Source: Spirochaetia bacterium (GTDB lineage Bacteria; Spirochaetota; Spirochaetia; SP-2023). Taken from it: a stretch of 64,000 nucleotides of DNA. The stretch spans positions 1 through 64,000 of the forward strand of contig OZ253665.1 in NCBI GenBank assembly GCA_965263295.1, in the 5' to 3' direction. A program made the position numbers. Every line of letters starts with the position of its first letter. Position 1 is the first letter of the stretch. Positions 45,001 through 48,000 of the stretch are shown in pieces.

Positions 45001-48000
45001 TTTCTGCTAAGATGACAATTCGGCTGGGCTTTTGGGGTGCTGGGCCTGGTGCGGGCGGTTTCAAGCGGCCTGATCCAGCGGCTTGATCAATCATATGTGT
45101 CCGGACCAGAATTCATGCGCCCAAGCCGGGCAGTGAGCAAAGGAGGGTGTATGTTCTCAAATGAGAATATTCCATCAAATACTATCAATGGTAGCGATGC
45201 CAAACTTGGAATTTGCCTGCAGTATCGCTCAAAAAATTTTGGTCCGTTGCTTGTCGGCCTGCGCGAGCTGGAACCGGGCGACTACCACAAAGGCTACATG
45301 CAGCTTTGTGCCACGCTGACCAGTTGCCCTGAAATTTCGGAGGCCCAGTTTCATCAGATTCTGGCTGAGCGCGAGGCGGGGCGCTGGCATACCTGGGTAC
45401 TGACCGATAGCGTCGCAGATCAGGAGCGCTTGGTGGCGACCATTAGTTTGCACCTGGAGCGAAAATTCTACCGCGATGGTCGCTATGTGGGGCATATCGA
45501 AGATCTAATTGTATTGCCAGAATACCAGCAACATCAACTAGGGAAAAGTTTGATGCAGTTCGCGATTGACAAGGCGGAGGCCATGAACTGTTATAAAATT
45601 ATCCTCGACTGTGACGAAAGATTGCAAGAATTTTACAGTAAAAGTGATCTGAAATACAGCAATATCCAGATGGCCAAGTATTTTTGACGGCGCGAACATG
45701 TGTGGGATTATTGCGTATTGTGGTGAAGAAAACGCCCAGCCCGTAATACTTTCTGGCTTAAAAAAACTGGAATACCGTGGCTATGACTCTGTAGGCATGG
45801 CTTGTGCCCAGGTCAAAGGTCTGGATGCGGGGTTTGCCATGTACAAGGAAGTGGGCAAAGTAGAGGACCTGGAACGCCTCTGTGAAGAGCACAGCTTGCA
45901 AGGCTTCAGCGGAATTGGCCACTGTCGTTGGGCGACGCATGGTGCCGTGACCTGGGCCAATGCCCATCCTCATCTCAGTTTCGACGGCCAGGTCATCCTG
46001 GTGCACAATGGCATTATCGAAAACTACCTGGAATTGCGACGTTTTCTCGAAGGCGAGGGCCTGGTTTTTCAATCGGAAGGGGATACCGAAACGGTTGCCA
46101 ACCTCTTGGCTTATTTATTGCAAGTGGGCCAGGGGCGCGATTTGTCGCCGGCGGCCACCCGCATTTCGGCGCGAGCCCGGCTGCACGGCGAACAGGGGCA
46201 GGACCTCGCTTTGCGCGCCCTGCAGAGCCTGCCTCACTGGTTGAAGGGGGCCTATGCCCTGGCCATAATGTTTGCCGCCCGGCCAGATGAAATTTATGCC
46301 GTCCGCTGTGAAAGCCCACTCGTGCTCGGCCTGGGACAGCGGGGCAATTATCTCGCTTCCGATGTATTGCCCATTTTGGATTACAGCCGCGAAGTCATTT
46401 ATTTGCAAAACCACGAGATTGTCCGTTTAAGACGACCCGGTGACTCCGGTGACTCTGCCGCCGGGTCCGGTTTTGCGGCCATGCAACTCTACGATGCCGC
46501 CGCCCGGCGATTAGAGCCTAGCACAGTGCGCGCGACAAGGCTGCAAAAGCTACAAGAAAGCGCCGAAGTCGTCGACAAACAAGGCTACCAGCATTTTATG
46601 GCCAAAGAGATATACGAACAGCCCAGGGTCTTCCGCGACTTGTTTCGGCGCCATGTGGATGCGCACGGCTGGCGGCCGCGTTTTGCCTTTGATGAGCAGC
46701 AGGAGCAGAAACTACGGGGTATTCAGCAGATCGTTTTTGTCAGTTGCGGCACCAGCTACCATTCTTCGGTCTATGCCAAATACTTGTTGGAAAAATACTG
46801 CGGTATTGCCGTTCGCGTTGAATATGCCTCTGAATTTCGCTACCGCGAACCGCTGCTGGGTCCGCATACTTTGGTCATCGGTCTGTCCCAGAGTGGCGAG
46901 ACGGCAGACACCCTGGCGGCTTTGCGTTTGGCTAAAGATCTGGGCGCGGCGACTCTCGGCCTGGTCAACGTGGCCAGCAGCAGCATTGCCCGCATGGTGG
47001 ATATTTTGCTGTGCAGTCACTGCGGGCCAGAGATCGGCGTGGCTTCGACCAAGGTCTACACGGCCCAGTTGCTGATTCTCTATTATCTGACGTTCTACCT
47101 GGCTCACTTGCGCGGCCTGGGCACGCGCGAACTAGTGGCGCAAAAGTTGCAAGAAAGTCAAAAGCTGGCGGTGTTTGCCGGACGGATTCTGAGCCAGGCG
47201 GACAGCTTGCGCGAGCTGGGCCGGGCGTATGCGGGCTACCAGCACATGCTCTACCTCGGACGCGGATTGTATTATCCGCTGGCCCTGGAGGGGGCTTTGA
47301 AGCTCAAGGAGCTGAGCTACATCCACGCCGAAGCTTACGCTGCGGCTGAAATGAAACACGGCCCCATCGCGTTAATTGACAATCGCATGCCCGTGCTGGT
47401 GCTGGTACCGAGCTGTGGCACCCTCTACGAAAAAATGCAGAGCAATATTGCCGAGGTGAAAGCTCGTGGCGGCCGCATCCTGGCATTTGTCGGCGCGGCC
47501 GCCGGCAGTCAAGAGACAGAAGAAGCCGGCGCAGCCTCGTTTGCCGAGCTAAAAGCTCTCTACAACGACCATTTTGTGCTGCCGTCCATTAGCGAAGAGC
47601 TGGATGTGCTGATTCTCGCCTTGCCTCTGCAGCTGTTTGCCTACCATATTGCCGTGGTCAAGGGCATCGACCCGGACCAGCCGCGCAACCTAGCTAAATC
47701 CGTGACGGTGGAATAAAGCCTTATGGATGATAAGATGGCTGACATGGGCAAAACAAAGCGGCGGGCCATTCTGACAAAGAGGGGCTGGATCATCTTTCTG
47801 GCCGTTTTTTTGTGTTATATCCTGGTATTATCGTATTTCGCATATCCGTATATCAAATTTATATTTATCAATGAAACAATTAATCGGCACAAAGCGAATA
47901 AAGCGATGCAGGAACTCATAACAGAGATGCCGTACCGGGATGCGGTAAAAAAGAGTGAAATAGCTCATTTTCACTGGAATAGTAACTACTGCTTCTATGT

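Follow-up and report, generated by a model that had tools for sequence, protein, structure and literature searches.

In the genome of Spirochaetia bacterium GCA_965263295.1, a gene for an acetyltransferase of the eukaryotic GNA1 type (g00042) is located directly upstream of glmS, and the best explanation is that UDP-GlcNAc for peptidoglycan is synthesized in this spirochaete in the eukaryotic order of steps, to which a probability of roughly 0.7 is assigned. According to the available text of two sources (PMC10087520; preprint 10.64898/2026.06.23.733835), the route through GlmU is that of bacteria and the route through GNA1 that of eukaryotes. In the proposed pathway, GlmS, assigned to its family by profile, would provide GlcN-6-P, g00042 would N-acetylate it with acetyl-CoA to GlcNAc-6-P, the single phosphohexomutase would shift the phosphate to C1, and a stand-alone uridylyltransferase would yield UDP-GlcNAc. 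Since GlmM and GlmU are lacking, acetylation of the 6-phosphate first represents the simplest route. A pathway in this order had been suggested in the initial annotation of the locus, and this part stands, as does the connection of a GNA1-type gene to glmS. The pathway itself is known; it is encountered here as a variant in a spirochaete, in which the last step is probably not specified by g00263 as first proposed.

The genome, designated G000, consists of one contig (OZ253665.1) of 2.41 Mb and is 92.6% complete. The window comprises the first 64,000 nucleotides of this contig; its coordinates are contig positions, which are also given for genes outside the window (Table 1). For comparison, three congeners (G001, G002, and G003, the last 94% complete), two further members of the order (G004 and G005), and a class sample of 151 Spirochaetia genomes, each at least 85% complete and including G000, were searched.

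Table 1. Position of genes and sites relevant to UDP-GlcNAc synthesis in G000
Feature	Position	Strand	Basis
Shine-Dalgarno-like AAGGAGG, 4 nt before ATG at 45151	45140..45146	+	sequence
g00042, putative GNA1-type glucosamine-6-phosphate N-acetyltransferase, 178 aa	45151..45687	+	PDB sequence matches, Foldseek, residue mapping, pLDDT
Spacer, 10 nt, g00042 stop to glmS ATG	45688..45697	+	sequence
g00043, glmS, glutamine--fructose-6-phosphate transaminase, 672 aa	45698..47716	+	TIGR01135, 678 bits (cut-off 418)
g00263, UDPGP-family protein	contig 330394-332022	-	PF01704; motif LNGGSASSY
g00404, phosphohexomutase	contig 528286-530064		PF02878
N-acetylhexosamine 1-kinase (NahK) homologue	contig 686605-687819		likeness to PDB 4OCJ and 4WH1, E 6e-66
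3PNN-like nucleotidyltransferase, 340 aa	contig 1030029-1031048		PF00483; PDB 3PNN, E 3e-52

Presence, size and order of the two genes were as annotated, but the spacer measures 10 nt, the 11 nt given before being the difference of the coordinates. The region from 43500 to 47719 is spanned by single contigs from two runs (samples S1 and S2 of one study), neither of which has an indel and which differ from it by 0 and 15 substitutions; the junction between g00042 and glmS is therefore not an assembly artefact. Both genes are presumably co-transcribed, and a promoter and terminator scan revealed no convincing promoter preceding g00042. The only Rfam feature at the window is a tmRNA (50027-50402).

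The earlier statement that the genome is devoid of GlmU and GlmM was confirmed. The glmU model TIGR01173 reached at best 27 bits (cut-off 367), with a hexapeptide protein resembling O-acetyltransferases of the Vat family, and the glmM model TIGR01455 79.5 bits (cut-off 448). Three hexapeptide genes are present, the Vat-like one, a gamma-carbonic-anhydrase-like one, and GlgC. Alternative GlmU (TIGR03991), full-length or C-terminal, gave no match at E 1e-10 in G000 to G003, and neither GlmU nor alternative GlmU nor GlmM exceeded its cut-off in these four genus members. Both models had been reported to detect their targets in 14 of 14 control genomes; this applies only if the E-value is set so loosely that G000 is detected as well, while over the cut-off each model recognizes nine of the 14. 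Moreover, the absence of GlmU does not set this genome apart, since no GlmU over cut-off was obtained in any of the 151 class members searched. GlmM was over cut-off in one and alternative GlmU in two of them, besides nine partial C-terminal matches to the latter. On the other hand, glmS was detected in 113 genomes and a MurA match in 145. MurA is also present in G000, which therefore needs UDP-GlcNAc. With the common bacterial pathway GlmS-GlmM-GlmU (TIGR01135, TIGR01455, TIGR01173) and its variant with alternative GlmU, G000 shares GlmS and the downstream enzyme MurA, but GlmM, GlmU, and alternative GlmU were not found in it or its genus. A literature search, in which subscription papers were mostly outside coverage, yielded no paper describing GNA1 in a spirochaete or the loss of GlmU across the class.

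It had also been suggested that g00042 is the acetyltransferase left open in a preprint on NagU. In the available text of that preprint (10.64898/2026.06.23.733835), an 'unidentified acetyltransferase' is postulated for species whose GlmU N-domain is truncated, such as Polystyrenella longa, and spirochaetes are not mentioned there. GNA1 was found in only 11 of the 151 genomes, and 98 of the 113 glmS carriers possess neither GlmU nor alternative GlmU nor GNA1. The suggestion is consequently not valid in general: g00042 provides an answer within this genus, but neither for the cases of the preprint nor for most of the class. Judged by the same text, G000 resembles S. aureus and other GlmU-less bacteria with NagU in having no full GlmU, a UDPGP-family protein, and a separate acetyltransferase; it differs in the absence of any GlmU fragment and of GlmM, and g00263 belongs to a divergent spirochaete family with motifs of the UDP-glucose type.

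Assignment of g00042 to the GNA1 type is based on its family and its active-site residues. As noted in the initial annotation, most of its matches carry the GNA1 name: ten PDB sequences were hit, nine at E 1e-23 to 2e-12, eight of the ten being named GNA1 or glucosamine- or glucose-6-phosphate acetyltransferase, one 'N-acetyltransferase', and one being a generic enzyme (2e-4). Within the genome, it is the sole GNA1-like ORF (E 3e-56; next 5e-4), and a homologue with 70% identity is known from Ca. Haliotispira prima. A monomer model built with 50 homologues had a pLDDT of 88.7, the first approximately 30 residues being of low confidence. Among the Foldseek matches listed, GNA1-family entries were found throughout ranks 1 to 23, the first other GNAT protein had rank 27, and the rmsd to 3fb3, 1i1d, and 2huz was 1.1-1.3 A.

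For C. elegans GNA1, the available text of PMC3413214 gives Glu104, Asp105, Lys136, Glu140, Cys141, Tyr149, Met161, and Arg164 as active-site residues. By sequence alignment, the first seven correspond to E117, D118, K149, D153, C154, Y162, and M174 of g00042, and seven of eight are kept if Asp153 is counted for Glu140, whose role is a backbone one. They include the Glu-Asp pair binding the 3-OH and 4-OH of the sugar (E117, D118), which is invariant across the 50 homologues, the phosphate-binding Lys (K149), and the conserved Cys, the thiolate-stabilising Tyr, and the Met (C154, Y162, M174). The phosphate-binding Arg164 is replaced by Y177, in an alignment extrapolated by one column, which is a point against the best explanation; Tyr is also found at this place in GNA1 of Arabidopsis and Aspergillus. 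Eukaryotic GNA1/GNPNAT1 (EC 2.3.1.4; PDB 3T90, 2VEZ, 4AG7, 1I1D, 3FB3) and g00042 have the GNAT fold in common at 28-35% identity. In contrast to these enzymes, g00042 is bacterial, precedes a glmS of bacterial type, carries the N-terminal extension of about 30 residues, and has Tyr for the second phosphate-binding Arg. Judged from sequence, g00042 is predicted to acetylate GlcN-6-P with acetyl-CoA.

Homologues of g00042 were detected in G001 (74% identity) and G002 (70%), and none in G003, G004, or G005, in agreement with the earlier count of two out of three congeners and none of two others of the order. In G000, G001, and G002 the gene is located directly upstream of glmS, with spacers of 10 nt, 9 nt, and about 190 nt, respectively, though the flanking genes differ. 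The congener devoid of GNA1 had been considered a weakness of the proposal. In G003, glmS was not found either, and the absence of both genes supports their coupling: GNA1 and glmS are linked in all three genus members having either gene and missing together in the fourth. A link of g00042 to divergent pantothenate-transporter-like and coaBC genes was rejected because it is conserved neither in G001 nor in G002. GNA1 is also not a general neighbour of glmS, as none of 30 glmS loci of other Spirochaetia contained a GNA1-like ORF within 1.5 kb; a single weak GNAT (E 9e-4) was seen there.

Within the class, the 11 genomes with GNA1 proper, a count from which a twelfth weak match was left out, belong to families f1, f4, f43, and f44. 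In three f4 genomes GNA1 is present and glmS was not found, and GNA1 is therefore not always a mark of de novo synthesis. In family f43, GNA1 and glmS are far apart, and GNA1 is arranged back to back with a gene for a DXD glycosyltransferase. Weak matches to the GNA1 profile in 26 of 300 other genomes of the phylum (at most 96 bits) and in G145 were dropped, since the H-I-E-D signature is missing (IENV in most); in a tree, those included are separated from the GNA1s. P0004, a more distant GNA1, and P0290, a glmS, are each recorded on an 8761-base contig, a hint of a further pair.

As annotated, there is a single phosphohexomutase, one PF02878 gene being present in each of G000 to G003. It fits no curated family (best score 146 bits, cut-off 439) and its PDB matches reached only 2e-18; a short N-terminal query matched nothing in PDB. 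By exclusion, this enzyme would use GlcNAc-6-P. It must also serve GlgC and ManC, which counts against the best explanation, as does the completeness of the genome of only 92.6%. A gene for a HAD-IIA hydrolase is located two genes from the mutase.

For the last step, two families come into consideration in G000. Three PF00483 genes were identified, GlgC, ManC, and a 340-aa protein similar to PDB entry 3PNN. The 3PNN-like family was detected in 59 of the 151 Spirochaetia, while 88 have a GalU-like family whose scores stay below the cut-off for GalU, a set from which three genomes with canonical GalU only were left out and in which this genus is not represented. The GalU-like family presumably represents the BB0207 type. 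The two families largely exclude each other: four genomes have both (expected 34), eight neither (expected 38), 84 and 55 only one, a statistic inflated by the non-independence of related genomes. The switch from one to the other recurs within families f3, f10, and f37. At least one of the two genes is present in 137 of 145 MurA-positive genomes. The NahK homologue directly follows the 3PNN-like gene in two of 20 short loci and in one of six long loci, which also contains galE; in G000 the two homologues (E 6e-66 to NahK, PDB 4OCJ and 4WH1; E 3e-52 to 3PNN) are unlinked.

Complementarity of the families together with adjacency to NahK suggests the 3PNN-like protein as a candidate GlcNAc-1-P uridylyltransferase, and on the sequence data this assignment is rated as fairly plausible, that of g00263 as doubtful, and participation of both or of another enzyme as improbable. 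Complementarity could equally reflect a shared supply of UDP-glucose. Adjacency to NahK is confined to a minority of loci, and the GalU-like gene is found near a GT2-like gene in seven of 11 loci, one confirmed by Pfam. The PDB title of 3PNN reads 'conserved domain protein' only, and a search by name yielded no relevant literature. In their available text, two Tannerella papers (PMC7670621, PMC10465942) give no locus tag for a 3PNN-type enzyme, and PMC6117026 gives no function for BB_0003. For Borrelia, the available supplements of PMC3485029 list an insertion for BB0002 but not for bb0003, bb0004, or bb0207, and these data do not separate the candidates.

Alternatively, the same route could be completed by g00263 as the GlcNAc-1-P uridylyltransferase, with 3PNN-like and GalU-like proteins supplying UDP-glucose or serving salvage only. 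Membership of g00263 in the UDPGP family and its motif LNGGSASSY were verified (PF01704, E 8e-10). Its model (pLDDT 92) has a TM of about 0.6 to UAP, UGP, and USP alike; in Foldseek, UDP-GlcNAc pyrophosphorylases (UAP1/AGX structures) come first, by a small margin (2e-20 versus 4e-18 for UDP-glucose enzymes). A profile of the family (38 sequences), however, matched UDP-glucose pyrophosphorylases best (5e-18; best UAP 1e-9), with which it has the motifs PGHG and DVKGG in common. In the available text of PMC8386105, Asn249, Glu329, and Tyr330 are listed as GlcNAc-binding residues of A. fumigatus UAP. The g00263 family shows GHG and D-I-G where aligned to UDP-glucose enzymes and looks unlike UAP in a residue comparison made via the UDP-glucose enzymes only. 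The Asn and Glu-Tyr residues of UAP are presumed to fall into these two motifs. In favour of g00263, the family has an invariant W450 and a near-invariant E451 where UDP-glucose enzymes have small residues (Gly at the Trp position), and UAPs carry an aromatic-acidic pair there.

Gene context and distribution of the g00263 family point in both directions. In all four Borrelia-like loci the homologue is flanked by a hexosaminidase-like gene on one side and the mutase on the other, in genomes also possessing a GalU-like gene, and in nine of ten genomes the family co-occurs with canonical GalU and hence does not replace it. Against g00263, a glucokinase-like gene precedes the homologue in two of ten non-Borrelia loci. 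The family is present in 97 of 151 Spirochaetia, but was not found in eight of 11 GNA1-positive and 48 of 145 MurA-positive genomes, 44 of the latter 48 harboring a 3PNN-like or GalU-like gene. With its UDP-glucose-type motifs and these gaps, g00263 is a questionable choice for the last step, and the 3PNN-like protein fits the class pattern better.

NahK homologues are present in all four genus members and would feed GlcNAc in at GlcNAc-1-P, a salvage that would allow G003 to live without GNA1 and glmS. The best explanation is favoured by the sole PTS IIC of G000, which is of the mannitol type, and by G002, in which GNA1 and glmS are present and no nagA or nagB match was obtained. NahK and the nagA-like and nagB-like genes of G000, on the other hand, are in line with a different role of g00042. 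In this case, a GNA1-type enzyme would serve to drain or recycle GlcN-6-P or to supply surface glycans, the wall precursor being provided by NahK salvage or by an acetylation route used in most Spirochaetia. That such a route exists follows from the 98 glmS carriers mentioned above, and it may operate in G000 too; the glycosyltransferase gene next to GNA1 in f43 also speaks for this role. Such a role is nevertheless considered unlikely in view of the tight linkage to glmS in the genus and the joint absence in G003. Very unlikely is a bacterial order with a new enzyme, in which GlcN-6-P would first be converted by the mutase and GlcN-1-P would be the substrate of g00042, in place of the C-terminal half of GlmU only: the best score of the mutase is to the archaeal GlmM model, although far below cut-off, but g00042 keeps the GNA1 residues binding a 6-phosphate sugar, and Spirochaetia with the 1-phosphate order have GlmM adjoining a hexapeptide acetyltransferase (G098), a pair that G000 lacks.

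Synthesis in the eukaryotic order, the preferred reading, resembles the pathway GFAT-GNA1-AGM1-UAP1, as described in the available text of PMC10087520 and 10.64898/2026.06.23.733835, in acetylation of the 6-phosphate before the mutase step and in monofunctional enzymes. It differs in that G000 has a eukaryotic-type enzyme for step 2 only, GlmS groups with that of an order-mate, the mutase belongs to no curated family, and the best candidate for the last step is a short bacterial nucleotidyltransferase. The locus provides a set of four enzymes whose reconstitution in vitro could demonstrate the eukaryotic order in a bacterium. Extended to the whole class, including Borrelia-like and Treponema-like members, a more tentative reading, held with less than even confidence, is that UDP-GlcNAc is made without GlmU by interchangeable single enzymes, that 3PNN-like and GalU-like proteins are two mutually replacing GlcNAc-1-P uridylyltransferases, and that this genus completes the eukaryotic order with a laterally acquired GNA1. 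If so, about 98 glmS-bearing relatives hide a further glucosamine-phosphate acetyltransferase. Two families emerge from the comparison as candidates for the last step, and GlcNAc activation in spirochaetes becomes directly testable; the weight of the finding is limited by the occurrence of GNA1 in only four small lineages and by the known fold of each enzyme.

GNA1 was likely gained laterally because its spread is patchy, and in trees that are weak it was probably set beside a native glmS. In a quick tree, the GNA1 of the genus groups with that of f43 at a support of 87, most of the sequences around them being unlabelled and the forks above being open. GNA1-like proteins of Patescibacteria, archaea, and f44 form a separate, well-supported clade; by their sequences, GNA1-like proteins are not confined to eukaryotes. 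In a FastTree run, the GlmS proteins of the genus and of the order-mate G004 are placed together, outside the main clade of spirochaetes, a join that was flagged as possibly false due to a long-branch effect. On a low-GC, virus-like metagenome contig (L258), GNA1 also directly precedes glmS. Origin of the cassette from a giant virus was not supported, since glmS of L258 does not group with that of the genus, which joins G004. The UDP-GlcNAc pathway of Mimivirus consists of GFAT, a GNA1-type acetyltransferase, and a short pyrophosphorylase of bacterial type. The same mosaic logic is apparent in G000, with the difference that the host is here a cell with peptidoglycan genes.

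Canonical GlmU was searched in a class sample of genomes (G000-G156), in which counts refer to 151 Spirochaetia, and was found in none of them. MurA is present in 145 of the 151, and no glucosamine-phosphate acetyltransferase was recognisable in 98 glmS carriers of the sample. In a few Spirochaetia (G098, locus L020; G051, C1:1245166-1247367), GlmM adjoins a stand-alone hexapeptide protein resembling the C-terminal half of alternative GlmU. Domains similar to the N-terminal part of GlmU lie in open frames of 613 to 964 aa in three genomes; these are possibly fusions.

For the last step, the 3PNN-like protein is a candidate GlcNAc-1-P uridylyltransferase. 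Class-wide, its family and the GalU-like family scoring below cut-off are nearly mutually exclusive. A second UDPGP type, which scores stronger, is contained in frames of 683 to 904 aa, close to sequence bearing GTPase-like motifs, in three genomes without the g00263 family. In Borrelia-like genomes (L075-L078), a hexosaminidase-like gene, a g00263 homologue and a phosphohexomutase gene are adjacent near the left chromosome end, at positions corresponding to BB0002-BB0004.

Location of features in this genome (G000; contig C1, which includes the window) and in compared genomes (G) and loci (L)
Feature	Location	Strand	Remark
DUF997, sodium:solute symporter, coaBC	window 41515-44719	-	divergent from GNA1
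Slot directly after glmS	window 47720-48372		variable
tmRNA gene	window 50027-50402	+	
Open frame	G000 C1:121919-132907	+	3663 codons
3PNN-like nucleotidyltransferase	L002:8030-9049 = G000 C1:1030029-1031048	-	
Vat-family streptogramin A O-acetyltransferase-like gene	L265 = G000 C1:1558414-1559085		
GlmU N-terminal-like domain	G052:C130:7923-8723; G133:C81:4979-5653; G081:C77:1010-1735		within long open frames
Second UDPGP type	G061:C27; G105:C1:762042-762938; G141:C203		within long open frames
Nucleotidyltransferase + GNA1-like pair	L183, L240, L245-L247, L251, L253-L256, L259, L260		
GNA1 directly upstream of glmS	L258:3794-6209		low-GC, virus-like metagenome contig

GNA1-like genes also occur in other settings. 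On archaeal-type contigs, one of them entitled Thaumarchaeota (L183), a GNA1-like gene comes immediately after that of a short stand-alone nucleotidyltransferase; the pair may replace archaeal GlmU as two separate proteins that work in the eukaryotic order. The glmS of the virus-like contig is unrelated to that of G000. In family f4, GNA1 occurs without glmS (L011:8041-11896 in G007; L217; L218), in G007 after ribonucleotide reductase genes. The G007 genome has 14 PTS IIC genes, which suggests that imported glucosamine is acetylated there.

The Vat-family-like gene of G000 reaches 260 bits, below the cut-off of 300. The DUF997, pantothenate-transporter-like symporter and coaBC genes do not keep their place next to GNA1 in the congeners. 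The main contig of run X3 carries 749 different bases in place of a 191-aa ORF after glmS (47723-48298) that has no Pfam match. Downstream of the tmRNA gene, GC content is lower in the ORFs from 50625, which have the appearance of an inserted island.
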